DNA of 64,000 bases, from the NCBI RefSeq assembly GCF_044324785.1, contig NZ_CP172127.1; one strand, 5' to 3'. The notes under the pieces are model-generated. The model was not told the DNA's origin. It ran no database searches and saw only the letters and a program-made list of their open reading frames with translations. Source of the stretch: Escherichia coli. Lineage in GTDB: Bacteria; Pseudomonadota; Gammaproteobacteria; Enterobacterales; Enterobacteriaceae. Every line of letters starts with the position of its first letter. Position 1 is the stretch's first letter. Positions 2,670 through 52,905 of this stretch are shown one piece after another. The translations under genes and the position numbers were made by a program.

Positions 2670-4310
2670 TCACACCGTAGCGAAACTAACTGGTTCACCA
2701 GCTCCGCGAGGTTCTGCCGACACAGAATGTTTGTTCAGACGGAATACGTCCACCGCCTCAGTTAATCGTGCCGCCTGTTCTTCAAGGGACACCGCCGCCG
2801 CTGAGGCCTCTTCTACCAGAGAAGCATTCTGTTGCGTCACCTTATCCATTTCAGAAATCGCCTGGCTAACCTGTGTTATGCCTCTGCTTTGTTCATCCGA
2901 GGCGGCGGCGATTTCCTGCATGATATGTGTGACACTCGCGACGGCATCAACAATAGTGCTCATGGTTTTCCCTGCCGTTGCCACCTCATCCGACCCCAGG
3001 TCAATTAACCTGACTGATTCACTGATCAAGCCTTCAATCTCTTTCGACGCCTGAGCGCTGCGGCTTGCGAGTGTCCGTACTTCGCTGGCGACAACGGCAA
3101 ATCCACGCCCTTGCTCACCCGCTCGCGCGGCTTCAACGGCAGCATTCAGTGCCAGAATATTCGTCTGGAAAGCAATACTGTTGATGACGGCGGTGATCTC
3201 AGAAATTTTCTTCGAACTCGTGGAGATAGCGCCCATCGTTTTTACTACACCGGAAACCGTCTGCCCGCCATCGCTGGCTTTAATAGAAGCCTCCTGCGCC
3301 AGTTTGCTGGCATAATGCGCGTTATCCGCATTCTGTTTCACCGTCGCAGTGAGTTGCTCCATGCTGGCGGCAGTTTGTTCAATTGCCGCCGCTTGTTCTT
3401 CAGTGCGAGATGAAAGGTCCGCATTGCCAGCGGAAATTTCGCTGGTGCCACGATAAATCTCTTCCGCGCCCTGTCGAACGGTCCCTACTGTCATCCCCAG
3501 TGAATGCTGCATTTGCTGTAAATGACGACTTAAGCGACCGATTTCATTACGACCCGCCGGTTCATCATTCATCGTCAGATCGCCACTGGCGATTTTTTCA
3601 ATTCGTTGTGCGGCATGTTGCAGTGGACGAATGACAATCCGACGTAGCACTATAAATGTTATCAGCGTCATGACCAGGGCAAGCACAAACGCGCCAATCA
3701 TGAACATCCCACCCAGGCGGGTGCGCTGATGGGCCAGTTCCGCCAGTTGGTTGGCTCTGGTGCTACGTATCTTAACGGCTTTGCTCAAAATATCGGTATA
3801 AGCATTATCCAGCGGTCGGATCTGCTCACTTTCATGATTGATAATCGCTTCAAACATGCCATTTTTGGCATATTTCAACATCGGTTGCATACCCGTGATA
3901 TAAGCCTGGAAGCGTTGATTTAATTCAGTGTCGAGGGCTTCATCAGCAGGTGTTTTCACCGGCCGATTCTGATAAGCACGATACCCTTGCTGCGACTGTT
4001 TAATCTCCGATTCGGCTTGCGCAATATTTCGCTTCATTGCTTCCATTTCCGCAATACGACTCGCTGCCCCGGCCTGAATCATATTGATCCGGGCTGAACG
4101 CAAAAAATCTGAACTGTTCGCTAACCCGGTCCGAATCTCAATCTCCGCAGTAACATCCCGCTGATCGCGATCGGCCTGCCAAAGGAAATAGCCGGCCAGG
4201 GCTGAACTTAATGCGAATAGAACTAAGATACCGCCAAGAATGCAGGCAAATAACGGAACCAGCCTGATGTGATGCAAAAAACCTAATCGCTGTGAGGGAG
4301 TTGTAATCAT
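2670..4310 (-). CDS. trg: methyl-accepting chemotaxis protein III (ribose/galactose sensor)
   Basis: 546-aa ORF with two TM segments, HAMP and conserved MCP signalling domain ([32 protein letters not shown]); synteny. Confidence 0.9.
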
Positions 4311-4589
4311 TACCGTTGTCTCTCGTCCAGGTTTACTCCTGATAGAAAGTCATCGGCACTTGACGGTAATTACTTATGACCAAAAACCTCTTTGCGTCAC
4401 ATTTTTACAACAATTATGGCAGAGAAGAATAATGCCATTGGAATGAAGAGAGTAACGAATGGCTAAACCGAATGACGAAAAATTCTGGAAAACAGCACGC
4501 AATTTCGTCAAGTGATTATTTTCGTCCCTAAGGAAACCTCATAGGATGCCTGCGGGTGCCTGAGACTTTCTGTTTTCAGGCTAACCGGG

Positions 4590-4655
4590 AATCAGAAAGA
4601 CGAAGGCCCCGACCGATATTTCTATCAACCGAGGCCAACGAATGAACCAAGCAAT
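4590..4655 (-). ncRNA. sokB: Sok-type antisense RNA of the hokB locus (approximate boundaries)
   Basis: Minus-strand promoter-like TTGCCG-17nt-TAACAT overlapping the mokB start; hok/sok loci carry a short antisense RNA here; ends not determinable by eye. Confidence 0.35.
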
Positions 4656-4659
4656 TCAG

Positions 4660-4849
<190 letters not shown>

Positions 4850-4920
4850 GGGCAAGCGCGGGGATTTTCCCCGCGCATCTGACTAGCAGATTCATTTTCT
4901 CATGGCACCCCTTTTACACT

Positions 4921-5094
4921 TCAGTTAGTGCATGTTTTTTTCGATGCACTAATAGAACCATCATTACAGACAAATTTGCCGCCTGCCGTACAGTGTGAGA
5001 TCCCCCCTTTCGAACCAGAACAGGGTTTGCGCCCGGCATCGGCATAAAAGGAAGCAAGCGCTCCCATAACCAAGATAAGTGCCAGTTTTTTCAT
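4921..5094 (-). CDS. ydcA: small secreted Cys-rich protein YdcA
   Basis: 57-aa product MKKLALILVMGALASFYADAGRKPCSGSKGGISHCTAGGKFVCNDGSISASKKTCTN with signal peptide; GGAGG 4 nt upstream of ATG; below the 60-aa cutoff of the ORF track. Confidence 0.85.
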   Translation of the reverse strand: MKKLALILVMGALASFYADAGRKPCSGSKGGISHCTAGGKFVCNDGSISASKKTCTN

Positions 5095-5264
5095 ATAACC
5101 TCCATGGTTTATCGAATCTTATGTTCGATTTGAACGTTATACGCTGGTTTATTTTGATACCGTTGATGAGATCAAAGATCGGGTGAATTGATTAAAAATA
5201 AGCCAGATGGACGTATGGGCAAGGATTATGGTTTTATTTGTCATACAAATAAATATAATAGGCG

Positions 5265-5328
5265 CTTCCGATGTAGACCCGTATTCTTCGCCTGTACCAC
5301 GGGTCGGTTTTAGTACAGGCGTTTTCTT
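5265..5328 (+). ncRNA. rydC: Hfq-dependent small RNA RydC
   Basis: Sequence CTTCCGATGTAGACCCGTATTCTTCGCCTGTACCACGGGTCGGTTTTAGTACAGGCGTTTTCTT matches RydC as I recall it; TATAAT -10 at 5254-5259; terminal hairpin plus U-tract; ydcA/cybB spacer as in K-12. Confidence 0.8.
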
Positions 5329-5338
5329 TAAATATCCT

Positions 5339-5869
5339 TCAGGAACGTTTACGCGGCATCATGCGTAGAAGTGTGTTGTCCTTCCAGAAATAGTGGTGTG
5401 CCAGTGCAGCCGCAGCGTGCAACCCGATGACAAAGTATCCCAGATTCGCCAGCGTTTCATGCCACGACTTTAAGCTATCAACCCGTTCGAAATTGGCCTC
5501 TGATGCATAAGGCATCGTCATACCAAACGCAAACCACGGGTTACCCCGGTTATACATCATCACCAAACCAATCACTGGCAGCGCAATAAACAGGAGATAG
5601 ATCACCAAATGTCCCAAATGCGCCAGTCCCGTCATCATCGGTTTTGGCTTAGGTATAATCGGCGGGGTTGGGTATTTCAGCCTTAACAAAAGACGAACCA
5701 CCATCAGCACGAGAATTGTGATGCCACAGGAAACATGAATCATGTTGATGAGCGGCCGATCGCTACGTGGGAAGAAACCACGAAACTCCATTGCGCAATA
5801 CGCTGCGATAACCAGCAAAAAGACCAGCCAGTGAATGCTGATTTGTAACCTTGAGTATTTATTTTCCAT
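5339..5869 (-). CDS. cybB: cytochrome b561
   Basis: 176-aa product from MENKYSRLQISIHWLVF (track ORF has 12 extra N-terminal codons); multi-TM with conserved His; synteny. Confidence 0.9.
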   Translation of the reverse strand: MENKYSRLQISIHWLVFLLVIAAYCAMEFRGFFPRSDRPLINMIHVSCGITILVLMVVRLLLRLKYPTPPIIPKPKPMMTGLAHLGHLVIYLLFIALPVIGLVMMYNRGNPWFAFGMTMPYASEANFERVDSLKSWHETLANLGYFVIGLHAAAALAHHYFWKDNTLLRMMPRKRS

Positions 5870-6057
5870 AACATTTCCTGCTTTAAAACAATTTGCCGTT
5901 AACATAACGAGCTTTTCTTAAAATTTCATTAAATATTGTTCACCCGTTTTCAGTACGTTACGTTTCACGGCAAGAATGTAGATTGCCCATCCCGCCATCC
6001 TGGTCTAAGCCTGGAAAGGATCAATTTTCATCCGAACGTTCCTGACAGGAGAAGACC

Positions 6058-7059
6058 ATGAGTAAAGTTGGTATTAACGGTTTTGGTCGTATCGGTCGAC
6101 TGGTGTTGCGTCGATTACTTGAAGTCAAAAGCAACATAGACATTGTTGCTATTAATGATCTCACTTCCCCAAAAATTCTCGCCTACCTGTTGAAACATGA
6201 TTCAAACTACGGACCGTTCCCCTGGAGCGTTGATTTTACGGAAGATTCACTTATCGTTGATGGAAAAAGCATCGCGGTTTACGCCGAAAAAGAGGCTAAA
6301 AATATTCCATGGAAAGCGAAAGGCGCAGAAATCATTGTCGAATGTACTGGCTTTTATACCTCCGCCGAGAAATCGCAGGCGCACCTTGATGCTGGTGCGA
6401 AGAAGGTGTTGATTTCCGCCCCTGCCGGTGAAATGAAAACCATCGTTTATAACGTCAATGACGACACACTGGATGGCAACGACACCATTGTTTCCGTGGC
6501 GTCATGCACCACTAACTGCCTTGCGCCGATGGCCAAAGCCTTGCACGACAGTTTCGGAATAGAAGTCGGCACGATGACGACCATTCATGCCTATACCGGC
6601 ACTCAGTCACTGGTGGATGGTCCGCGAGGTAAAGATCTACGCGCTTCACGTGCAGCGGCAGAAAATATCATTCCCCACACTACAGGTGCGGCAAAAGCCA
6701 TTGGTCTGGTGATCCCGGAACTGAGCGGCAAACTGAAAGGTCATGCGCAACGCGTGCCGGTGAAAACAGGTTCGGTCACTGAGCTGGTATCGATTCTCGG
6801 AAAAAAAGTGACTGCCGAAGAGGTGAATAACGCACTTAAACAAGCAACCACCAATAACGAGTCATTTGGTTATACCGATGAAGAAATAGTCTCTTCCGAT
6901 ATCATTGGCAGCCATTTCGGTTCGGTGTTTGATGCCACGCAAACGGAAATTACCGCCGTGGGCGATTTACAACTGGTGAAAACGGTCGCCTGGTACGATA
7001 ACGAATATGGCTTCGTCACGCAGCTTATTCGCACCCTCGAAAAATTCGCTAAACTCTGA
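6058..7059 (+). CDS. gapC: glyceraldehyde-3-phosphate dehydrogenase paralog (intact)
   Basis: 333-aa uninterrupted ORF with NAD-binding [10 protein letters not shown] and catalytic [10 protein letters not shown] motifs; between cybB and aldA. Confidence 0.85.
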
Positions 7060-7066
7060 CGCGCAC

Positions 7067-7095
7067 AGGCGGAGGAAAAAACCTCCGCCTCTTTC
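7067..7095. terminator. hairpin between convergent gapC and aldA
   Basis: AGGCGGAGG-AAAAAA-CCTCCGCCT stem-loop followed by CTTTC; sits between two convergent stop codons. Confidence 0.5.
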
Positions 7096-7100
7096 ACTCA

Positions 7101-8540
7101 TTAAGACTGTAAATAAACCACCTGGGTCTGCAGATATTCATGCAGGCCATGTTTACCATCTGCGCCGCCAATACCAGATTTACGCCATCCGGCGTGGAAG
7201 CCTTGCATAGCTTCGAAGTTTTCACGGTTGATGTAAGTTTCACCAAACTTCAGCCCTTTAATGGCTTTCATCGCGACGTTCAGATTTTGGGTATAGATTG
7301 ATGAGGTCAGGCCGTAATCACTGTCATTAGCCATTGCGATAGCGTCTTCCAGCGTGTCAAATGCGACCACTGGCAGCACCGGGCCAAAGGTTTCCTCGTG
7401 CATAATCGACATTTCCTGGCGAACATCCAGTAGCAATGTCGGCGGATAATAATATCCTTTCCCCTCTACCGCTTTGCCACCCAACGCCACTCTCGCCCCT
7501 TCTTCTACTGCGCGCGCCACTTTTTGCTCGACCCTTTCCAGCGCCGCGGCGTTAATCAACGGCCCCATCGCAATGTCGTTGCGTTCAGCGGGGTTACCAA
7601 ATTGAACCGCCTGCATCGCTTCACCCAGCCGATTGACGAACTGATCATAAATGCCTTTCTGTACATAAACACGTTCTGCACAGTTACACACTTGCCCACT
7701 ATTAATGACGCGTGAATCAACGATGGCTTTGACTGCCAGTTCAAGATCGGCATCGTCCATTACGATAGCTGGTGCTTTACCACCCAATTCCAGACACACT
7801 TTGGTGATGTTTTTCGCCGCAGTCGCCATGATCTTTTCACCTGCAGAGACGCTGCCTGTCATACTGACCATTGCGACCTTTGGGTTACCCGCCAGTTCTT
7901 GCCCAACGGTTTCACCACGCCCCAGAACAAGGTTAAACACGCCGCGCGGAAGGCCTATTTCATCGACGATTTTGGCGAATGCAATCGCATTGTTTGGCGT
8001 AAATTCACTGGGTTTAATGACAATGGTATTACCAGTCAAAAGAGCGGGAGCCATTTTGCGGGCAATGAGGAAGAACGGGAAGTTCCACGGCAGAATGCCG
8101 GTAGTCACACCAAGCGCACGTTTAAACAGAAGAATATTTTCTCCTGGACGATCGCTTTGAATAATCTCGCCCTCGTAACGCCGTGCCCACTCCGCCATGT
8201 AATCGATATAGTCCGCAGTAAAAGCCACTTCGACTTCAGCCAGCTGCTGGATCTTGCCCCCTTCTTCAACAATCAGCGCACTGATTTCACTGGCGCGTTC
8301 GCGGATCCCGGCGGAGATTTTGCGCAACCAACTGGCGCGTTCAATGGCAGGCAACGCTTCCCATTCTGGTTGTGCACGTTCTGCTGCATCGATTGCCTTA
8401 CGGGCATCCTCGGCCTGACCATCGGGAATGCGGGAAATGACAGCCTCAGTAGCAGGGTTTACCACATCAATCCATGCGTCTCCACGCCAGGTAACAAACT
8501 GTCCATCGATATACATAGGATGTTGAACGGGTACTGACAT
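7101..8540 (-). CDS. aldA: lactaldehyde dehydrogenase
   Basis: 479-aa aldehyde dehydrogenase family ORF (catalytic Cys in GQVCNCAERVYV context, ELGGKAP motif); synteny. Confidence 0.9.
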   Translation of the reverse strand: MSVPVQHPMYIDGQFVTWRGDAWIDVVNPATEAVISRIPDGQAEDARKAIDAAERAQPEWEALPAIERASWLRKISAGIRERASEISALIVEEGGKIQQLAEVEVAFTADYIDYMAEWARRYEGEIIQSDRPGENILLFKRALGVTTGILPWNFPFFLIARKMAPALLTGNTIVIKPSEFTPNNAIAFAKIVDEIGLPRGVFNLVLGRGETVGQELAGNPKVAMVSMTGSVSAGEKIMATAAKNITKVCLELGGKAPAIVMDDADLELAVKAIVDSRVINSGQVCNCAERVYVQKGIYDQFVNRLGEAMQAVQFGNPAERNDIAMGPLINAAALERVEQKVARAVEEGARVALGGKAVEGKGYYYPPTLLLDVRQEMSIMHEETFGPVLPVVAFDTLEDAIAMANDSDYGLTSSIYTQNLNVAMKAIKGLKFGETYINRENFEAMQGFHAGWRKSGIGGADGKHGLHEYLQTQVVYLQS

Positions 8541-9537: not shown

Positions 9538-9926
9538 GGTTCCTCCTTATCGTTTCCTTAAGAATACTGCGTGAGATAATAATGAGAAGCGGAGCACTCT
9601 GAAAGGAAGATGATGCTTTTTCTATCGCGCCATCGCGAACCAGACACTGGTTTTAGTCATACTGTATTTGCGGAGAAACTGTTGATAAAACATCTATAAC
9701 ATAATGTTCTATCATTTTTAAGTGACAGATAAGTTGGTGTGATATTTATGAAATATTCATTCTTATATTTCTCAATCAATGAGAACATTTGCAACACGCT
9801 CATTAATGGGAAATCCTTAAATTTAAATTGAATAATATCTGGCCTGAGCTATAAACTACTATCCGTCTAAGGAGACAAATTGTCCTTTTTATTCATCAAC
9901 ATAATACTATATGTCGAGAAACATAC

Positions 9927-10421
9927 ATGAAAAAAATGTTTCAACTTTTAGAAACCGCCTGGCCTGCCGTAAAAACAACAGGACTTACAGGTTGCGTAAC
10001 CGCTCCGGAAACTGAAGATAACCTTCTTTTATTAGAGGATAAATACGCAACACATATTCCAAAAGACTATCGGCAGTTATTGTCTCATTTTGGCGCATGT
10101 CATTTTGCCGATCCTCAAATTTATACTTTGAAGGATCTGGACAGATATTACCCTCTATTTTTGCAACAATGGGAAGATTATAAAAAAGAATATCCATTAT
10201 TGAACAACATTGATCCTTTTCCTGTTGGCAGTTTTGGCGATGGGAGTGTAGCTTTTCTTGACCGCAACAGCCTAAAAATTTATATTCTCATTCATGATTT
10301 TGGTATATTTTCCGATGATGTCGGTGATTTCCCTTGTGAGTTATGCTTTGAAAATTTTGGTGAGTTAGTGGAAATGCAAGTTGAAATGATTCTTTATTTA
10401 CAGCAATGTGGAGTCTCATGA
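9927..10421 (+). CDS. hypothetical protein, candidate SMI1/KNR4 (SUKH-1)-like immunity protein
   Basis: 164-aa ORF in visibly AT-rich DNA; motifs IPKDYRQLL...FG and PFPVGSFGDGSVAFLD resemble SUKH/SMI1 family signatures; weak SD, start uncertain (ATG at 9927 or 9936). Confidence 0.45.
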   Translation: MKKMFQLLETAWPAVKTTGLTGCVTAPETEDNLLLLEDKYATHIPKDYRQLLSHFGACHFADPQIYTLKDLDRYYPLFLQQWEDYKKEYPLLNNIDPFPVGSFGDGSVAFLDRNSLKIYILIHDFGIFSDDVGDFPCELCFENFGELVEMQVEMILYLQQCGVS

Positions 10422-10717
10422 AAAATAAAATCATCACTCCTGTCCTTACTGAAAACAAAGTGAATTTGATAGCAGAAAAATATTGTAAAAAGTATAATCT
10501 TAATGGCTCGCTGGCATACAAAATCACTGCTATTAAATTTCTTCCTGATGGTATGAAATCATACGACCTTGATATTCCATTATGGATGGTAGTCAGAGAT
10601 GTTAAAGGTTGGGATGATATGGAAATTACGATTTTTATTTCTGACAAAAACAGTGAAGTTCTTTGTTGCAGTAATATTTGGTATCCAGTATATCGTCCTC
10701 ATCAAGCAGATTTGTAA
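10406..10717 (+). CDS. hypothetical protein (no recognisable family)
   Basis: 103-aa ORF overlapping the preceding ORF by 16 nt, GGAG 4 nt upstream of ATG (translational coupling); AT-rich. Confidence 0.4.
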   Translation: MWSLMKNKIITPVLTENKVNLIAEKYCKKYNLNGSLAYKITAIKFLPDGMKSYDLDIPLWMVVRDVKGWDDMEITIFISDKNSEVLCCSNIWYPVYRPHQADL

Positions 10718-10763
10718 TAAGCACGTAAGGAGTATCTCCCTTGCTATTTTTCAGAATTCATAA

Positions 10764-37343: not shown

Positions 37344-40300
37344 ATGATTACTATTGACGGTAATGGCGCGGTTGCTTCGGTGGCGTTTCGCACCAGTGAA
37401 GTTATCGCCATCTACCCTATTACCCCCAGTTCCACGATGGCAGAACAGGCTGATGCATGGGCCGGAAACGGCTTGAAAAACGTCTGGGGAGACACACCAC
37501 GCGTGGTTGAAATGCAGTCGGAAGCAGGTGCTATCGCTACCGTGCATGGCGCTTTGCAGACGGGTGCCCTTTCAACATCGTTTACGTCATCGCAGGGTTT
37601 GCTGCTGATGATCCCGACGCTGTACAAACTGGCAGGCGAACTCACACCGTTTGTCCTACATGTAGCGGCACGTACCGTTGCCACACATGCACTCTCTATT
37701 TTTGGCGATCATTCCGACGTCATGGCGGTGCGCCAGACGGGTTGCGCGATGTTGTGTGCGGCAAACGTCCAGGAAGCGCAAGACTTTGCTCTCATTTCGC
37801 ACATCGCGACGCTGAAAAGCCGCGTGCCATTTATTCATTTCTTTGATGGTTTCCGCACGTCCCACGAAATCAATAAAATTGTCCCGCTGGCCGATGACAC
37901 GATTCTTGATCTCATGCCGCAGGCCGAAATTGATGCTCATCGCGCCCGGGCACTCAACCCGGAACATCCGGTGATCCGCGGTACGTCCGCCAATCCTGAC
38001 ACTTATTTCCAGTCTCGCGAAGCCACCAACCCCTGGTACAACGCGGTCTATGACCATGTTGAGCAGGCGATGAATGATTTCGCTGCCGCGACAGGTCGTC
38101 AGTATCAGCCGTTTGAGTATTACGGGCATCCGCAAGCTGAACGAGTGATTATCCTGATGGGCTCAGCCATTGGCACCTGTGAAGAAGTGGTTGATGAATT
38201 GCTAACCCGTGGCGAAAAAGTCGGCGTGCTGAAAATTCGCCTGTACCGCCCCTTCTCAGCCAAACACTTGCTACAAGCTCTGCCGGGATCCGTACGCAGC
38301 GTGGCGGTACTGGACAGAACCAAAGAACCCGGTGCCCAGGCAGAACCGCTCTATCTGGATGTGATGACCGCACTGGCAGAAGCCTTTAATAATGGCGAGC
38401 GCGAAACCCTGCCCCGTGTCATTGGTGGGCGCTATGGTCTTTCATCCAAAGAATTTGGCCCGGACTGTGTACTGGCGGTATTTGCCGAGCTCAACGCGGC
38501 TAAACCGAAAGCGCGCTTTACGGTTGGTATTTACGATGATGTGACCAATCTGTCACTGCCGTTGCCGGAAAACACCCTGCCAAACTCGGCGAAACTTGAA
38601 GCCTTGTTTTATGGCCTTGGTAGTGATGGCAGCGTTTCCGCGACCAAAAACAATATCAAGATTATCGGTAATTCCACGCCGTGGTACGCACAGGGCTATT
38701 TTGTTTACGACTCCAAAAAGGCGGGCGGCCTGACGGTTTCTCACCTTCGCGTGAGCGAGCAGCCGATTCGTTCCGCTTATCTCATTTCCCAGGCTGATTT
38801 TGTTGGCTGCCACCAGTTGCAGTTTATCGATAAATATCAGATGGTTGAACGTTTAAAACCTAGCGGCATTTTCCTGCTCAACACGCCGTACAGCGCAGAT
38901 GAAGTGTGGTCGCGCTTGCCGCAGGAAGTTCAGGCCGTGTTAAACCAGAAAAAAGCGCGCTTCTATGTGATTAACGCGGCGAAAATCGCCCGCGAATGTG
39001 GCCTGGCGGCCCGTATTAATACCGTCATGCAGATGGCTTTTTTCCATCTGACGCAAATTCTGCCTGGCGATAGCGCCCTCGCAGAATTGCAGGGTGCGAT
39101 TGCCAAAAGTTACAGTAGCAAAGGTCAGGATCTGGTGGAGCGCAACTGGCAGGCTCTGGCGCTGGCGCGTGAATCCGTAGAAGAAGTTCCGTTGCAGCCG
39201 GTTAATCCGCACAGCGCCAATCGACCGCCTGTGGTTTCCGATGCCGCTCCTGATTTCGTGAAAACCGTTACCGCGGCGATGCTCGCCGGGCTTGGTGATG
39301 CCCTCCCCGTTTCGGCGCTGCCGCCAGACGGCACCTGGCCGATGGGCACCACGCGCTGGGAAAAACGCAATATCGCCGAAGAGATCCCCATCTGGAAAGA
39401 GGAACTCTGTACCCAATGTAACCACTGCGTCGCCGCTTGCCCACACTCAGCTATTCGCGCAAAAGTGGTACCGCCTGAAGCGATGGAAAACGCCCCTGCC
39501 AGCCTGCATTCGCTGGATGTGAAATCGCGTGATATGCGCGGGCAGAAATATGTCTTGCAGGTGGCACCGGAAGATTGCACCGGCTGTAACCTGTGCGTCG
39601 AAGTTTGCCCGGCGAAAGACCGTCAGAATCCAGAGATTAAAGCCATCAATATGATGTCGCGCCTGGAACATGTCGAAGAAGAGAAAATCAATTACGATTT
39701 CTTCCTCAACCTGCCAGAAATCGACCGTAGCAAACTGGAACGTATTGATATTCGTACATCGCAGCTGATTACACCGCTGTTTGAATATTCAGGTGCTTGC
39801 TCCGGTTGTGGCGAGACGCCGTATATTAAATTGCTGACTCAGCTCTATGGCGACCGGATGTTGATCGCTAACGCCACGGGCTGTTCTTCAATTTATGGCG
39901 GTAACCTGCCCTCTACACCGTATACTACCGATGCCAACGGTCGAGGACCGGCATGGGCGAACTCGCTGTTTGAAGATAACGCCGAATTTGGCCTTGGTTT
40001 CCGCCTGACGGTCGATCAACACCGTGTCCGCGTGCTGCGTCTGCTGGATCAATTTGCCGATAAAATCCCGGCTGAATTACTAACTGCGTTGAAATCAGAC
40101 GCCACGCCAGAGGTTCGTCGTGAACAGGTTGCAGCTTTACGCCAGCAACTCAAAGATGTTGCCGAAGCACATGAACTGCTACGTGACGCAGATGCGCTGG
40201 TGGAAAAATCAATCTGGCTGATTGGCGGCGACGGCTGGGCTTACGATATCGGCTTTGGCGGTTTGGATCATGTATTGAGTTTGACAGAAAACGTCAACAT

Positions 40301-40868
40301 TCTGGTGCTGGATACGCAATGCTATTCCAACACCGGTGGTCAGGCGTCGAAAGCGACACCGCTGGGTGCAGTAACTAAGTTCGGCGAGCACGGCAAACGT
40401 AAAGCGCGTAAAGATCTTGGCGTCAGTATGATGATGTACGGTCATGTTTATGTGGCGCAGATTTCTCTCGGCGCGCAGCTCAACCAGACGGTGAAAGCGA
40501 TTCAGGAAGCGGAAGCGTATCCGGGGCCATCGCTGATCATCGCTTATAGCCCCTGTGAAGAGCATGGTTACGATCTGGCACTCAGTCACGACCAGATGCG
40601 CCAACTCACTGCTACCGGCTTCTGGCCGCTATATCGCTTTGATCCGCGTCGTGCCGATGAAGGCAAACTGCCGCTGGCGCTGGATTCACGCCCGCCGTCA
40701 GAAGCACTGGAAGAAACGTTACTTCATGAGCAGCGTTTCCGTCGTCTGAATTCGCTGCAGCCAGAAGTGGCAGAACAGTTATGGAAAGATGCTGCAGCTG
40801 ATTTGCAAAAACGCTATGACTTCCTGGCACAAATGGCCGGAAAAGCGGAAAAAAGCAACACCGATTAA
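37344..40868 (+). CDS. ydbK: pyruvate:flavodoxin/ferredoxin oxidoreductase (PFOR)
   Basis: 1174-aa ORF with two 4Fe-4S ferredoxin motifs (CTQCNHCVAACP, CTGCNLCVEVCP) and TPP-binding region (GGDGWAYDIGFGG). Confidence 0.95.
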   Translation: MITIDGNGAVASVAFRTSEVIAIYPITPSSTMAEQADAWAGNGLKNVWGDTPRVVEMQSEAGAIATVHGALQTGALSTSFTSSQGLLLMIPTLYKLAGELTPFVLHVAARTVATHALSIFGDHSDVMAVRQTGCAMLCAANVQEAQDFALISHIATLKSRVPFIHFFDGFRTSHEINKIVPLADDTILDLMPQAEIDAHRARALNPEHPVIRGTSANPDTYFQSREATNPWYNAVYDHVEQAMNDFAAATGRQYQPFEYYGHPQAERVIILMGSAIGTCEEVVDELLTRGEKVGVLKIRLYRPFSAKHLLQALPGSVRSVAVLDRTKEPGAQAEPLYLDVMTALAEAFNNGERETLPRVIGGRYGLSSKEFGPDCVLAVFAELNAAKPKARFTVGIYDDVTNLSLPLPENTLPNSAKLEALFYGLGSDGSVSATKNNIKIIGNSTPWYAQGYFVYDSKKAGGLTVSHLRVSEQPIRSAYLISQADFVGCHQLQFIDKYQMVERLKPSGIFLLNTPYSADEVWSRLPQEVQAVLNQKKARFYVINAAKIARECGLAARINTVMQMAFFHLTQILPGDSALAELQGAIAKSYSSKGQDLVERNWQALALARESVEEVPLQPVNPHSANRPPVVSDAAPDFVKTVTAAMLAGLGDALPVSALPPDGTWPMGTTRWEKRNIAEEIPIWKEELCTQCNHCVAACPHSAIRAKVVPPEAMENAPASLHSLDVKSRDMRGQKYVLQVAPEDCTGCNLCVEVCPAKDRQNPEIKAINMMSRLEHVEEEKINYDFFLNLPEIDRSKLERIDIRTSQLITPLFEYSGACSGCGETPYIKLLTQLYGDRMLIANATGCSSIYGGNLPSTPYTTDANGRGPAWANSLFEDNAEFGLGFRLTVDQHRVRVLRLLDQFADKIPAELLTALKSDATPEVRREQVAALRQQLKDVAEAHELLRDADALVEKSIWLIGGDGWAYDIGFGGLDHVLSLTENVNILVLDTQCYSNTGGQASKATPLGAVTKFGEHGKRKARKDLGVSMMMYGHVYVAQISLGAQLNQTVKAIQEAEAYPGPSLIIAYSPCEEHGYDLALSHDQMRQLTATGFWPLYRFDPRRADEGKLPLALDSRPPSEALEETLLHEQRFRRLNSLQPEVAEQLWKDAAADLQKRYDFLAQMAGKAEKSNTD

Positions 40869-40896
40869 ATGTTCTGGATAAGAATTATCCAATTCT

Positions 40897-41006
40897 AAAA
40901 AAAAGCCCGAACGACTGTTCGGGCTTGTCTTTTTATATGTTGGAAAATCAGTGGCAATGCAATGGCCCAACAGAAAATAAAATCTGTGACAATAAAGGCA
41001 TATAAC
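40897..41006 (-). ncRNA. micC: small RNA MicC (repressor of ompC/ompD mRNAs)
   Basis: Minus strand reads GTTATATGCCTTTATTGTCACAGATTTTATTTTCTGTTGGGCCATTGCATTGCCACTGATTTTCC...AAGCCCGAACAGTCGTTCGGGCTTTTTTTT, matching MicC; ydbK/ompN spacer; its hairpin doubles as ydbK terminator. Confidence 0.85.
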
Positions 41007-41233
41007 CCGCGCAGAATAACGTATAGCAAATTAAAAGTATAATTTTTATTTTGTATGTATTATCTCCAATACATTCACCAGACTTATTATCATTTCAGAA
41101 GAATTATTTGATTAAGGTTTTACTTAAGGCGTAACAAATAATATTTATCGGCTAACTGAACTTCTCCTTTAGGATGTTTTCACTCCCCGAAATGGGGATA
41201 AAAGGCAAATAAAATAACTAAAGGATTTATTCA

Positions 41234-42367
41234 ATGAAAAGCAAAGTACTGGCACTTTTAATTCCTGCCCTGCTCGCCGCAGGTGCTGCACATGCAGCCG
41301 AAGTTTATAATAAAGACGGCAACAAATTAGATCTGTATGGCAAAGTTGATGGCCTGCATTATTTTTCTGATAATTCAGCGAAAGATGGCGACCAGAGCTA
41401 TGCGCGTCTGGGTTTTAAAGGCGAAACCCAAATTAACGATCAACTAACTGGCTACGGTCAATGGGAATACAATATTCAGGCAAACAACACTGAATCCTCA
41501 AAAAACCAGTCATGGACCCGTCTGGCATTTGCCGGATTGAAATTTGCAGATTACGGTTCTTTCGATTACGGACGTAATTATGGCGTAATGTACGACATCG
41601 AAGGCTGGACCGATATGCTGCCTGAATTTGGCGGTGACTCTTATACCAATGCAGACAACTTTATGACTGGTCGAGCCAATGGCGTCGCGACTTATCGTAA
41701 TACTGATTTCTTCGGTCTGGTAAATGGTCTGAACTTCGCGGTGCAGTATCAAGGTAACAACGAAGGTGCCAGTAATGGTCAGGAAGGCACCAACAACGGA
41801 CGTGATGTTCGCCATGAAAACGGTGACGGCTGGGGTCTTTCCACAACATATGATTTAGGCATGGGCTTTAGCGCTGGTGCGGCATACACCTCTTCTGACC
41901 GCACCAATGACCAGGTTAACCATACTGCGGCGGGTGGTGATAAAGCAGACGCATGGACTGCTGGGCTAAAATACGATGCTAACAATATTTACCTGGCAAC
42001 CATGTATTCAGAAACGCGTAATATGACCCCGTTTGGCGACAGCGATTATGCTGTTGCAAACAAAACCCAGAACTTTGAAGTTACTGCACAGTACCAGTTT
42101 GATTTTGGTCTGCGTCCGGCAGTCTCTTTCCTGATGTCTAAAGGCCGTGACCTGCACGCTGCCGGTGGTGCAGACAACCCGGCAGGTGTTGATGATAAAG
42201 ATCTGGTTAAATACGCCGATGTTGGCGCGACTTACTATTTCAACAAAAATATGTCCACCTACGTTGACTATAAAATCAACCTGTTGGATGAAGATGACAG
42301 CTTCTACGCTGCCAACGGCATCTCTACCGATGATATTGTCGCTTTAGGTCTGGTTTATCAGTTCTAA
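41234..42367 (+). CDS. ompN: outer-membrane porin OmpN
   Basis: 377-aa general porin with signal peptide and C-terminal YQF; divergent from micC. Confidence 0.9.
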
Positions 42368-43117: not shown

Positions 43118-44053
43118 ATGTCGCAAAATCAAGAAATTAGTAAGAAAGAACAATACAACCTGAACAAATTACAAAAACGTCTGCGTCGTAACGTGGGCGA
43201 AGCCATTGCTGACTTCAATATGATTGAAGAAGGCGATCGCATCATGGTTTGCCTCTCCGGGGGTAAAGACAGCTATACCATGCTGGAGATTCTGCGCAAT
43301 TTGCAGCAAAGCGCGCCAATCAATTTTTCGCTGGTGGCTGTTAACCTCGATCAAAAGCAACCGGGCTTCCCGGAACACGTTCTGCCCGAGTATCTTGAAA
43401 AGCTGGGCGTTGAGTACAAGATTGTTGAAGAGAACACTTACGGTATCGTGAAAGAGAAAATTCCAGAGGGCAAAACCACTTGCTCACTGTGTTCTCGCCT
43501 GCGTCGCGGTATCCTTTATCGTACCGCAACGGAACTAGGGGCGACGAAGATCGCACTGGGTCACCATCGTGACGATATCCTGCAAACGCTGTTCTTAAAT
43601 ATGTTCTACGGTGGCAAGATGAAAGGTATGCCTCCGAAACTGATGAGCGATGATGGCAAACATATCGTGATTCGTCCGCTGGCCTACTGCCGCGAGAAAG
43701 ATATTCAGCGCTTTGCCGATGCAAAAGCGTTCCCGATTATTCCGTGCAACCTGTGCGGTTCACAGCCTAACCTGCAACGTCAGGTAATTGCTGACATGTT
43801 GCGTGACTGGGATAAACGTTATCCGGGGCGTATCGAGACGATGTTCAGCGCAATGCAGAATGTGGTGCCGTCGCATCTGTGCGATACCAACCTGTTCGAT
43901 TTCAAAGGCATTACCCACGGTTCTGAAGTGGTTAACGGGGGTGATCTGGCGTTTGATCGCGAAGAGATCCCACTACAACCGGCGGGCTGGCAGCCAGAAG
44001 AAGATGAAAATCAGTTGGATGAGTTACGACTGAATGTGGTTGAAGTGAAATAA
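43118..44053 (+). CDS. ttcA: tRNA-cytidine(32) 2-sulfurtransferase
   Basis: 311-aa ORF with PP-loop SGGKDS and CxxC motifs; N-terminus [19 protein letters not shown]. Confidence 0.9.
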
Positions 44054-45815: not shown

Positions 45816-45937
45816 AAAAAAAAGCCGACTCATCAAAGTCGGCGTCGTACGAATCAATTGTGCTATGCAGTAATTCAAAAAAGGAAGTAAGACAATATGG
45901 AGCGCAACGCCCATCGCTTGACGTTGCATTCACCTGC
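45816..45937 (-). ncRNA. fnrS: FNR-activated small RNA FnrS
   Basis: Minus strand reads GCAGGTGAATGCAACGTCAAGCGATGGGCGTTGCGCTCCATATTGTCTTACTTCC...GAGTCGGCTTTTTTTT, matching FnrS; zntB/dbpA spacer as in K-12. Confidence 0.85.
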
Positions 45938-49087: not shown

Positions 49088-49281
49088 GTAACCTCCTATG
49101 CACCTTCACACGTCGTGATTCAGACGGGTTAATTGTTCATACTTACTGCATCGTTCCCTTCACAGATTGAAACAATACTCTACTTCATACCTGTGAGTAT
49201 CTGCGCAGGCGGGGCATTTTATACTAGCCTGTTAGCAGTATCGAACAGTTTAGCCCGAGTTTAATTCAGCACAGGCTCCGA

Positions 49282-50796
49282 TCAGGATGATTTATTCATA
49301 GCAGGAACCAACAAAAATGCGATAAATAACAGACCACTGATTAGCAGAAAGGTATCCGAAAATGCCATAGTTTGCGCCTCCCTCAGCATCAATTGACTTA
49401 ATAATTTGGTTGAAGCCAGTATTTCCGATGTCTGGTCACTTCCACTGCGATTAAAAAACAAAGCACTTCTGGAAATGAAGTCATTCACCGTATGGGGAAC
49501 AGAAACCATTTTTTCACCCATTCTCGAAAAATGAAAATTAGTTCGATTATTGAGAATAGAGCCACACAGGGCAATACCAATCGCGCCCCCAAGATTACGT
49601 GTTAAATTAAATACACCAGAGGCTAACTTCAGCCGTTCTTTTGGAATTCCCCCCAGCGTTAATGTTACGATGGGGGCCATCGCAAACTGCTGCGAAATCC
49701 CTCTAATTGCCTGTGGAAACAGTAACTCCTGCCATCCCCATTCGTGGGTTATCGGGGTAAAAAGATACATTGAAAACACAAATCCACCCAGCCCCGCCAT
49801 CAACAGCCATCGCAGATTTATTTTTTTACTTAACCAGAAGTAAAAGGGAACAGAAAATAACTGGAAAATACCTGTTGTGCAAACGGCAAAACCTATCTCT
49901 TCGGCATTTAATCCGCGAACCTGCCCCAAAAACACAGGTATTAAATATACAGTAGAGAATATCCCAACCCCTCCAGAAAAAGAAAAAAAACATCCCAGCG
50001 TGAAATTTTTATCCTTAAAAGCATGAAGATCCATTATCGGATTGGATATTGTAAGTGTACGCACAGCAAATAAAATAAAACTCACCAATGCCAGAACTGA
50101 TGTCAGCAAAATAGTATTATCATCCAGCCATCCCCAGCGCGCTCCTTCTTCAACGGTATATTCCAGACATCCCAGTGTCATGGCCAACAGGATAATACTC
50201 GGATAATCAGCAACTTTCAGTAAAGAGAGATCAGGTTTATCAAAATTAACCAGAAAAGGAATACTCAAAACTAAATATATGCCAGGTAATATATTGATAT
50301 AAAATAGCCATCGCCAGTCGAGATTATCAGTGATCCAGCCCCCCAGAGTTGGCCCTAGCGTCGGTGACAGTGAGGCCAGCGCACTGACTACCGCAGCAGC
50401 CAACCCCAGCTCTTTACCCTGGTAATAAATAAACGCCGTCGTGAAAACTAAAGGGATCATGGATGCGCCAGCCGCTCCCTGTAAAGCACGAAACAAAATC
50501 ATGATCTGAATATTCCATGCAAGTCCACACGCGATACTCATTAAAGTAAATATTCCCGCGGATAGAGTAAAAAGCCAACGAGTGGAAAATACCCGTGACA
50601 GCCACCCAGAGAGCGGAATAACAATAATCTCAGCAATTAAATAGCTGGTCTGAAGCCAGGCCATTTCGTCTTTACCTGCGGACAGACCACCACCTATTTC
50701 ATTTAGGGATGACGATACAATTTGAATATCAAGCTGAGCAATAAATAATCCCATACACATACTGGCGAAAGCAATATGTTTACGCATAGACATCAT
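49282..50796 (-). CDS. MFS transporter, DHA2 (EmrB/QacA-like, 14-TMS) family
   Basis: 504-aa hydrophobic ORF; start overlaps the upstream MFP gene stop (ATGA); visibly AT-rich; not part of the K-12 gene order I recall. Confidence 0.75.
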   Translation of the reverse strand: MMSMRKHIAFASMCMGLFIAQLDIQIVSSSLNEIGGGLSAGKDEMAWLQTSYLIAEIIVIPLSGWLSRVFSTRWLFTLSAGIFTLMSIACGLAWNIQIMILFRALQGAAGASMIPLVFTTAFIYYQGKELGLAAAVVSALASLSPTLGPTLGGWITDNLDWRWLFYINILPGIYLVLSIPFLVNFDKPDLSLLKVADYPSIILLAMTLGCLEYTVEEGARWGWLDDNTILLTSVLALVSFILFAVRTLTISNPIMDLHAFKDKNFTLGCFFSFSGGVGIFSTVYLIPVFLGQVRGLNAEEIGFAVCTTGIFQLFSVPFYFWLSKKINLRWLLMAGLGGFVFSMYLFTPITHEWGWQELLFPQAIRGISQQFAMAPIVTLTLGGIPKERLKLASGVFNLTRNLGGAIGIALCGSILNNRTNFHFSRMGEKMVSVPHTVNDFISRSALFFNRSGSDQTSEILASTKLLSQLMLREAQTMAFSDTFLLISGLLFIAFLLVPAMNKSS

Positions 50797-51824
50797 CTCT
50801 CATCAACACTGACGGTGACGGACAGTCCCGGGCGAAGAAGTTGCTTTAATTCCTTTGCGTCGTCAAATGCAATCCGTACCGGGACACGCTGAACAATTTT
50901 GGTGAAATTGCCAGTGGCATTTTCTATCGGAATCAAGCTGAAACTGGCTCCTGTCGCTGGGGAAAGGCTTTCAATGTGACCGTGAAACACTTCCCCTTTG
51001 AGAATATCAGCACGGATCTCAGCCTTCATTCCTGGCTTCATTCCCGCTATTTGGTTTTCTTTATAATTTGCATCAACCCACAACTCACTGACTGGTACTA
51101 GTGAAACTAACGATGTGCCGCCTTCCACCCAACTGCCTGTATGGGCGCTGCGGTTTGCGACAATGCCATCAATCGGCGCACGAACAAGGGTATATTCCAG
51201 ATCCAGTAGTGCCTGAGTCAAAGCGGCCTGAACTTCTTCGATACTTGCACGTACGTTTTCTTCCTGAGCAGATAAAACTGCCAGCCGTTGCTTCTCCACC
51301 ATGAAATCGTTCGCGGCTTTGCGCTCCTTTGCTGCGACCTGCTGGTAGTCAAACCTGGCGTTATCAATAATTTGTTGCGATATTGCCGCTGATTGTGCGA
51401 GTTTTTCATAACGTTCAGTATCTCGCAGGCGCTTTTGCTCCTCATGTTTTACTGCCTGCCATGTTTCACTGGCACTTTGAATTATCGACTGCTGCATCGC
51501 AATAGTGGCTTGAATGCTTTCGAGATTGGCTTTGCTACTTTTTATTTTTGCCTCAAGCCTGGCGACATTTGCACGATAATCCCGATCATCGAGACGCAGG
51601 ATAATATCGCCTTTTTTTACGCTCTGATTATCGCGCACCTCTATAGCAGAAATATAACCAGAAACTTTACTTGCCACCGTGGTGATATTACCACCAATGT
51701 AAGCATCATCCGTCGTCTGTATAAATCTTCCTTTGCTTACCCACCAGATAAAAAAGACAACGCCAGCCAAAATAATACCGATCGCTACCACCCCAATAAG
51801 CTGTTTTTTAGAAATTATCATCAC
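50793..51824 (-). CDS. HlyD/EmrA-family membrane fusion protein
   Basis: 343-aa ORF with N-terminal TM anchor, coiled-coil region and C-terminal beta-barrel-like region. Confidence 0.75.
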   Translation of the reverse strand: MMIISKKQLIGVVAIGIILAGVVFFIWWVSKGRFIQTTDDAYIGGNITTVASKVSGYISAIEVRDNQSVKKGDIILRLDDRDYRANVARLEAKIKSSKANLESIQATIAMQQSIIQSASETWQAVKHEEQKRLRDTERYEKLAQSAAISQQIIDNARFDYQQVAAKERKAANDFMVEKQRLAVLSAQEENVRASIEEVQAALTQALLDLEYTLVRAPIDGIVANRSAHTGSWVEGGTSLVSLVPVSELWVDANYKENQIAGMKPGMKAEIRADILKGEVFHGHIESLSPATGASFSLIPIENATGNFTKIVQRVPVRIAFDDAKELKQLLRPGLSVTVSVDER

Positions 51825-51917
51825 TCTTTACACCGTATATATCCGGAAACTTGCATTCGTCATATTTAAAATTTAACATGGCTTATTTGATGATTTCTGA
51901 CAAAATACCTACTGTAA

Positions 51918-52733
51918 ATGACAATCACACTGCAACCCAAAGCATCACCAGGGCATCACATTATCGGACTGGATTCGGAACATCTGAATGGAGGCACAGT
52001 TCCCTGGCATAAACATCTCTATGCCCAGTTGCTTTACCCGGCTGAAGGAGTCGTTCGTGTATGGGCTGGAGAAAGCGTCTGGCTAGTCCATGCCAGCAGC
52101 GCGCTTTGGCTGCCCCCACAAATGCCGCATAAGTTTGTTGCGACAGGCAACGTACTTTTAAAAACCGTACTGGTTTCAGAAGCGGAAAGTGAAACGCTGG
52201 GAAAAGTTTGCTTCATGACGGGTATTTCACCCCTGTTAAGAGAATTACTAATTGCAATTAACCAACTTCCACCGTCGCAAAGTACCACAGATAAACAACA
52301 GTTACGTTTTTCAGCCCTCGAGACACTGATACTTCAGGAAATAAAAATGGGGGTGAAAATGTCACTTGAACTCCCTTGGCCAAATGATGAGCGGCTACAG
52401 CAGCTTTGTGAGAATTTGCTAAACAACCAAGGGTATCTACCAACACTGGATAATCTAGCGGATAAAATTAACGTCAGTAGCCGTACACTCATGCGCTTAT
52501 TTGTTAAAGAGACGGGATTAACATTTCGCCACTGGGTTCAGCAAATGCACGTTATTTCTGCAGTGACGCTTCTTGATGATGGATATTCGTTGACCAAAAT
52601 TGCCCATCGTCTGGGCTATGCCTCAGCTGAATCGTTCGGCAATATGTTTAAGCGTCGAACGGGCTACTCGCCCGGTAAATTTACTCGTCGATTAACGATG
52701 CATGATTATGCAATCACAAGACAAATGATTTAA
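51918..52733 (+). CDS. AraC/XylS-family transcriptional regulator (cupin + HTH)
   Basis: 271-aa ORF; C-terminal AraC-type HTH (SRTLMRLFVKETGLTFRHWV...IAHRLGYASAESFGNMFKRRTGYSPGKF); divergent from the MFP-MFS pair, 93-bp shared promoter region. Confidence 0.75.
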   Translation: MTITLQPKASPGHHIIGLDSEHLNGGTVPWHKHLYAQLLYPAEGVVRVWAGESVWLVHASSALWLPPQMPHKFVATGNVLLKTVLVSEAESETLGKVCFMTGISPLLRELLIAINQLPPSQSTTDKQQLRFSALETLILQEIKMGVKMSLELPWPNDERLQQLCENLLNNQGYLPTLDNLADKINVSSRTLMRLFVKETGLTFRHWVQQMHVISAVTLLDDGYSLTKIAHRLGYASAESFGNMFKRRTGYSPGKFTRRLTMHDYAITRQMI

Positions 52734-52803
52734 CTTATATTTTCGTGAAATCTGTCACTGAAGAAAATTGGCAACGGATGGGTAAAACCGTTATAACACT
52801 GTC

Positions 52804-52898
52804 ACCGGTCACCAGGACCCCAGGCCGGATTTAAGACGAGGATGCACTGCTGTGTGTACTGTAGAGTCTGGCGGATGTCGACAGACTCTATTTTTTTA
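52804..52898 (+). ncRNA. mcaS: small RNA McaS (IsrA)
   Basis: ACCGGTCACCAGGACCCCAGGCCGGATTTAAGACGAGGATGCACTGCTGTGTGTACTGTAGAGTCTGGCGGATGTCGACAGACTCTATTTTTTT matches McaS as I recall it; terminator hairpin plus U-tract; convergent with abgR. Confidence 0.8.
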
Positions 52899-52905
52899 TG
52901 CAGTT

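Follow-up and report, generated by a model that had tools for sequence, protein, structure and literature searches.

The 64-kb window analysed here, by which we mean the whole stretch of 64,000 nucleotides under study, almost certainly carries an intact rydC locus (5236-5329) together with standard MicC, FnrS, McaS and SokB genes in their usual contexts, with the closer spacing of these genes explained by common presence/absence polymorphisms. The small RNA content of the window, SokB included, is already known and consists of textbook E. coli regulators that nearly all E. coli genomes carry. The identification has little importance beyond correct annotation, but is useful as a positive control for the placement of sRNA genes from sequence alone.

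Small RNA genes in the window

We identified exactly five RNA families by scanning the whole window with Rfam release 15 (Infernal) at the curated gathering thresholds. These were RydC (RF00505, 92.5 bits vs. a gathering threshold of 48, E-value 5e-17, model positions 1-64 of 64), MicC (RF00121, 127.5 vs. 90 bits), FnrS (RF01796, 134.8 vs. 60 bits), McaS (RF00115, 113.5 vs. 42 bits, full length), and sok (RF01794, 111.5 vs. 59 bits, 4554-4705 on the plus strand). A permissive scan of the whole window (E<=0.1) returned no further sRNA families. E-values of the sRNA matches ranged from 1e-17 to 1e-24 and therefore rule out chance. RydC, MicC, FnrS, and McaS had been called recognisable by sequence in an earlier note on this DNA, and the Rfam matches and the alignments to the K-12 genes give the same coordinates, the four sRNAs having been placed to within one base by that first reading of the sequence alone. 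All four score far above their thresholds, and the terminator hairpin with U-tract that the note described for each of them is present in the folds, those of MicC and FnrS being recovered by the terminator scan as well.

Alignment to K-12 showed that RydC (b4597, 65/65) and FnrS (b4699, 122/122) are identical to their K-12 counterparts, MicC (b4427) is identical at 109 of 110 positions, and McaS (b4426) is identical at 73 of 74 positions over its last 74 nt (3' part). Given this near-identity to characterised genes, the published mechanisms are therefore transferable with high confidence. For this strain, expression, Hfq binding, YieP binding at 5236-5250, and the control of targets are inferred or drawn from the literature. 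Coordinates of all features are compiled in the table.

Table. Features of the rydC locus and of the other sRNA loci in the 64-kb window, in order of position
Feature	Position	Strand	Basis and remarks
hokB mRNA leader and hokB toxin ORF (4700-4849, 49 aa)	4554-4849	+	Rfam RF01794 and ORF
SokB antisense RNA, 57 nt	4596-4652	-	56/57 identical to K-12 b4429
ydcA, 57-aa secreted small protein	4921-5094	-	ORF; equals K-12 b1419; divergent from rydC
Putative operator of YieP (GntR/FadR-type repressor), ATTTGTATGACAAAT	5236-5250	-	Motif match; -29 to -15 of rydC
rydC -10 box, TATAAT	5254-5259	+	Read from sequence; five bases before C5265
rydC gene, RydC sRNA, 64-65 nt	5265-5329 (Rfam 5265-5328)	+	RF00505 and K-12 alignment
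RydC 5' single-stranded seed, decamer CUUCCGAUGU	5265-5274	+	Unpaired in Rfam consensus and in fold
RydC pseudoknot helix S1, 7 bp	5276-5282 with 5299-5305 (nt 12-18 with 35-41)	+	Rfam structure line
RydC helix S2, terminator stem, 9 bp	5289-5297 with 5313-5321 (nt 25-33 with 49-57)	+	Minimum-free-energy fold
cybB (cytochrome b561 / superoxide oxidase)	5339-5869	-	ORF; convergent with rydC; annotated cybB in matching genomes
SUKH/SMI1-KNR4 (immunity-protein-like) gene	9927-10421		Within 1.1 kb insertion
micC gene, MicC sRNA	40897-41006 (Rfam 40889-41009)	-	RF00121 and K-12 alignment
MicC terminator hairpin	40903-40926		Terminator scan; T-tract on both strands
fnrS gene, FnrS sRNA	45816-45937 (Rfam 45820-45937)	-	RF01796 and K-12 alignment
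FNR-box-like TTGAGCGAAGTCAA	45973-45986	-	Centred near -42 of fnrS; identical to K-12
3.6 kb island that K-12 lacks	49098-52697		Between smrA and mcaS; MFS (DHA2-like) permease, HlyD-type adaptor, AraC-family regulator
mcaS gene, McaS/IsrA sRNA, minority allele	52804-52899	+	Rfam RF00115
fnr gene, activator of fnrS	59029-59781	+	ORF; collinear with K-12 b1334

MicC resembles K-12 b4427 and the RF00121 family in sequence and in position between divergent ompN (41234-42367, +) and convergent ydbK/pfo (37344-40868, +). Its 5' ompC-pairing region and body are unchanged, and the single difference, a C-to-U change in the terminator stem, converts an A·C mismatch of K-12 into an A-U pair in agreement with the Rfam consensus and leaves a perfect stem. 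The 110 nt upstream of micC are identical to K-12 at 107 positions. MicC represses ompC. As judged from its sequence, the MicC hairpin probably also terminates ydbK/pfo, which ends at 40868. FnrS is like K-12 b4699 and RF01796 in that the RNA, the zntB-ynaL/dbpA intergenic position, and the FNR-like box are all shared; its terminator consists of an 8-bp stem followed by eight U (fold and terminator scan). The only difference is a promoter substitution at -4, the upstream 110 nt being otherwise identical (109/110). The FNR consensus is TTGAT-N4-ATCAA, and by comparison with it TTGAGCGAAGTCAA is a putative FNR site for fnrS. MicC, FnrS, and McaS are the standard Hfq-dependent sRNA genes, intact and in the setting in which they are normally found.

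A hokB/sokB type I toxin-antitoxin locus lies approximately 420-670 bp upstream of rydC and was outside the sRNA list of the earlier note. It is like that of K-12, with a 49-aa HokB ORF and a 57-nt SokB (56/57) between trg and ydcA, and nothing notable is different. The Rfam 'sok' model matches the strand of the hokB mRNA (+) and not the SokB strand (-), on which a hairpin and T-tract are found at 4636-4605. The toxin gene hokB has SokB as its antisense partner.

The rydC locus

The rydC locus is like K-12 b4597 and RF00505 in sequence, seed, pseudoknot helices, U-tail, TATAAT box, divergent ydcA, and convergent cybB 9-10 nt away. It differs from K-12 in one base of the promoter spacer, which is G5240 in the window and A in K-12. 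The rydC region is present at an identity of at least 95% in 5,415 of 5,426 complete E. coli genomes. The U-tail UUUUCUUU directly follows helix S2, with S2 and tail spanning 5289-5329 (+). Helix S2 forms in the minimum-free-energy structure and, with this tail behind it, constitutes the intrinsic terminator. Six distinct sequences were found among all RydC loci gathered in the genome and metagenome scans and make up the RydC alignment, namely that of the window, four metagenomic/Escherichia variants, and Citrobacter sp. R56. All 16 pseudoknot pairs (S1 and S2) are standard in all six, and pairing falls to 25-41% in the same alignment when the 3' partner is slid as a control. Helix S1 is invariant, while S2 has three compensatory double changes, all from Citrobacter sp. 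R56, and the S2 covariation is thus supporting evidence for the pseudoknot from a single lineage, not independent proof. The seed CUUCCGAUGU is invariant in the aligned relatives save for one C1U variant. The pattern scanned over a 298-Gb genome collection, TTCCGATGTNGACCCG with 15 specified bases, was too short and gave chance matches in unrelated phyla; the only real RydC loci among the matches listed were those of Citrobacter sp. R56 and an Escherichia-like contig. A metagenome scan with a longer RydC pattern yielded 76 loci, nearly all of which are E. coli-type, and the analysis of pseudoknot covariation is therefore limited to the six-sequence comparison. The seed of the H-type RydC pseudoknot is known to pair with cfa mRNA (PMC11340327, PMC4337610), and a crystal structure of RydC with Hfq has been published (PMC4337610).

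No recognisable -35 element was found for rydC, and the sigma-70 promoter scan calls no full site here, matching the published description of this promoter as a perfect -10 without an obvious -35 (PMC11340327). The 110 nt upstream of rydC are identical to K-12 at 109 positions, the sole difference being that at 5240, within the putative YieP operator. The operator sequence ATTTGTATGACAAAT (5236-5250, -) matches the ChIP-exo YieP motif atTTGTaTGAcaAAT (PMC7642389) at 15 of 15 positions and is the only zero-mismatch match to this motif within the window, whereas the K-12 form matches at 14 of 15 positions, with A in place of G at 5240. Among the RydC loci sampled, the perfect form (G5240) occurred in 65 and the K-12 form (A) in 14. 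We infer from the motif match that YieP binds at 5236-5250 upstream of rydC. Repression of rydC by YieP has been shown genetically and is approximately 20-fold in E. coli and 7.5-fold in Salmonella (PMC11340327), and rydC and ydcA were chosen as candidate YieP targets in a ChIP-exo/RNA-seq study from 2020 (PMC7642389); rydC is missing from one published YieP ChIP-exo regulon. The G/A polymorphism in the putative operator could make K-12 atypically leaky for rydC, which would be a smaller variant of the rewiring considered for McaS below and is likewise improbable.

In the mechanism that we propose, rydC transcription would start at C5265 from a sigma-70 promoter with a consensus -10 and no -35. 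The putative YieP operator would overlap the promoter spacer, so that YieP would be expected to keep rydC off unless relieved. The 64-65 nt RydC is predicted to fold as an H-type pseudoknot in which the 7-bp helix S1 is interleaved with the 9-bp helix S2. S2 and the UUUUCUUU tail would act both as intrinsic terminator and as the 3' end bound by Hfq. Together with Hfq, the seed CUUCCGAUGU would pair with the long cfa leader and stabilise this mRNA, leading to more cyclopropane fatty acid synthesis. Published work has established that seed-cfa pairing stabilises cfa mRNA and counteracts Rho termination and that RydC also represses csgD, yejABEF, trpE, and pheA (PMC11340327, PMC4337610, PMC3985669). 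FnrS represses yieP at the level of translation and so indirectly activates rydC (PMC11340327); in this strain, FnrS under FNR control would likewise block yieP translation and indirectly turn on rydC. This known chain, FNR -> FnrS ⊣ yieP ⊣ rydC -> cfa, would join two sRNAs of the window, with cfa, yieP, and hfq located outside it.

Spacing of the sRNA genes, the cybB junction, and the McaS allele

The window corresponds to K-12 1,394,133-1,496,779 in inverted order and is collinear with it at 96-99% identity (alignment to K-12). Two K-12 segments have no counterpart within the window, the Rac prophage (K-12 1,411,942-1,434,958; 23.0 kb) and a catabolic segment with feaR, feaB, tynA, paaZ-paaY, and ynbG (K-12 1,446,202-1,465,356; 19.2 kb). 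The absence of Rac and paa had been noted earlier and holds, but to speak of their removal relative to K-12 is the wrong direction for Rac, where it is K-12 that carries an insertion, and the missing paa segment is wider than described and takes in feaRB and tynA. A 43-bp overlap at 43125-43167 marks the unoccupied, intact attachment site in ttcA. Of 5,426 complete E. coli genomes, 2,485 (46%) have an uninterrupted ttcA-uspF junction and hence an empty Rac site, and in the other approximately 54% something is inserted there. Loss of Rac also takes away two K-12 sRNAs, RalA and KilS. The genes paaA-E are present in 3,154 of the 5,426 complete genomes (58%) and missing from 42%. Both the Rac and the fea-tynA-paa absences are common presence/absence polymorphisms. 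As the earlier note had proposed, the sRNA genes are closer together than in K-12, because the ttcA site holds no prophage and the fea-tynA-paa segment is absent; the span from mcaS to rydC is 85.8 kb in K-12 and 47.6 kb in the window, despite two insertions relative to K-12 (1.1 kb, 9611-10748; 3.6 kb, 49098-52697) that partly offset the shrinkage.

It is very improbable that the proximity of the four sRNAs, together with fnr and dgcM, constitutes a selected regulatory neighbourhood in which compaction matters for co-inheritance or co-regulation. The 110 kb of K-12 that match the window do contain seven annotated ncRNAs, roughly three times the K-12 genome average, fnr lies 13 kb from fnrS, and dgcM, a gene of the csgD pathway, is located between fnrS and mcaS. 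Moreover, the FnrS ⊣ yieP ⊣ rydC relation puts two of the sRNAs in one published circuit (PMC11340327), and csgD is repressed by both RydC and McaS (PMC6061853). All four sRNAs, however, act in trans via diffusible RNAs, so that their distance from one another should be of no consequence, yieP, cfa, and csgD map to other parts of the genome, and the 5' neighbour of rydC varies between genera (PMC11340327). Nor is the spacing conserved, given the frequencies of a filled Rac site and of paa among complete genomes and the additional gain of 3.6 kb beside mcaS in this strain. With approximately 100 annotated sRNA genes in the 4.64 Mb of K-12, about 1.4 sRNAs are expected per 64 kb and P(>=4) is approximately 0.05 per window, by a rough Poisson estimate, and several such windows per genome are therefore expected by chance. 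Non-random clustering was rejected on this estimate, which puts the sRNA clustering close to chance. The shortened spacing is best seen as the product of common polymorphisms without demonstrated functional meaning, with no evidence that proximity matters.

The arrangement of rydC and cybB invites another reading, namely that the RydC terminator hairpin also ends the convergent cybB transcript, or that their abutment is a site of antisense interference between cybB read-through and RydC, which we consider unlikely. Between the RydC 3' end and the cybB stop codon (5339-5341, -) there are 9-10 nt, just as in K-12, so that the earlier description of RydC as convergent with cybB and of its terminator as abutting the cybB stop is fair, and a 9-nt gap to a 65-nt RydC recurs in 71 of the 78 loci in which a cybB-type stop was found. 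In addition, most species have cybB on the 3' side of rydC (PMC11340327), and the symmetry of the S2 hairpin is sufficient for it to form on both strands. In the direction of cybB, however, the hairpin is followed by AAGAAUAC, with one U in eight bases, and the terminator scan has no minus-strand site there, in contrast to the MicC hairpin with its T-tract on both strands. We thus do not claim termination of cybB by the RydC hairpin, for lack of a U-tract on the cybB side and of a minus-strand terminator in the scan.

McaS bears on two further readings. It is like K-12 b4426 and RF00115 in length, three-hairpin architecture, GGA motifs, terminator, adjacent abgR, and proximal promoter. The 10 differences from K-12 comprise nine substitutions in nt 6-20 (5' hairpin), where the loop is UCACCAGGACCCCAG in the window and GCAGAGGAGACAAU in K-12, and C36A. 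A 120-nt McaS query (52780-52899) was found at an identity of at least 95% in 1,465 of 5,426 genomes (~27%) and at 90-95% (K-12 type) in 3,873; the allele of the window is therefore a maintained, common minority allele, and that of K-12 is the majority allele. Upstream, homology to K-12 extends to about -106 and gives way there to the 3.6 kb island that separates mcaS from smrA in the window; the AraC-family ORF of this island stops 70 nt short of the McaS start. That one or more of the sRNA matches is a decayed or silent relic, McaS being the best candidate on account of its clustered substitutions and this upstream break, is exceedingly improbable. McaS matches the family model over its full length at 113.5 bits and retains the 5' stem, the GGA motif of the loop, the other two hairpins, and the terminator (fold and alignment), its proximal promoter is conserved with K-12 including a CRP-like GTGA-N6-TCAC element, the same allele is maintained in approximately 1,465 of 5,426 genomes, and neither the other three sRNAs nor their promoters differ appreciably from those of K-12. 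An intact McaS gene is thus the preferred reading. In K-12, McaS represses csgD, activates flhD, and titrates CsrA. The minority allele and the 3.6 kb island may be linked, their counts being close (1,465 and 1,316 of 5,426 genomes, respectively, as marginal counts). If they are truly linked, McaS expression might be rewired in these lineages relative to K-12, by read-through from the island or by its AraC-family regulator, and CsrA titration and other loop-dependent activities might be altered too, although we regard such rewiring as quite improbable. The nucleotides of McaS that pair with csgD are not given in the available part of PMC6061853. Possible annotation lines are the perfect YieP motif at rydC, the existence of two McaS alleles in the species, and a minority allele that is about as frequent as the adjacent efflux island.

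Other differences from K-12 in the window

Only strain N3 (CP031609), from a human rectal swab, has an identity of at least 99% to the window over 4000-8000 among complete RefSeq E. coli genomes, the other 5,417 complete genomes having 95-99%, and the source lineage is thus rare among complete genomes. N3 shares the 1.1 kb insertion (9611-10748), which sits between ydcF and hrpA and, from its SUKH/SMI1-KNR4 gene, looks like an orphan immunity cassette; a 103-aa ORF in this insertion had no Pfam match. In place of the feaR-feaB-tynA-paa segment, the window has an AT-rich, non-coding spacer of 450 bp (31477-31926), which occurs in only two of 5,426 complete genomes, those of N3 and 19KM1831. The 3' end of ydbL, next to this spacer, looks unusually divergent in megablast. 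A 768-bp insertion at 62692-63459 with InsA/InsB-type ORFs, across which the K-12 alignment overlaps by 9 bp, looks like a copy of IS1 between ynaI and mppA, and IS5F, which is next to ynaJ in K-12, is absent from the window at 61313-61316. Two genes that are pseudogenes in K-12 are intact in the window. The gene gapC (6058-7059, +) is a 333-aa glyceraldehyde-3-phosphate dehydrogenase ORF, and ydbA (23774-31459, -), which is split by IS2 and IS30 in K-12, is a 2,561-aa autotransporter-like ORF that holds about ten tandem repeats of ~294 bp (self-offset BLAST matches).
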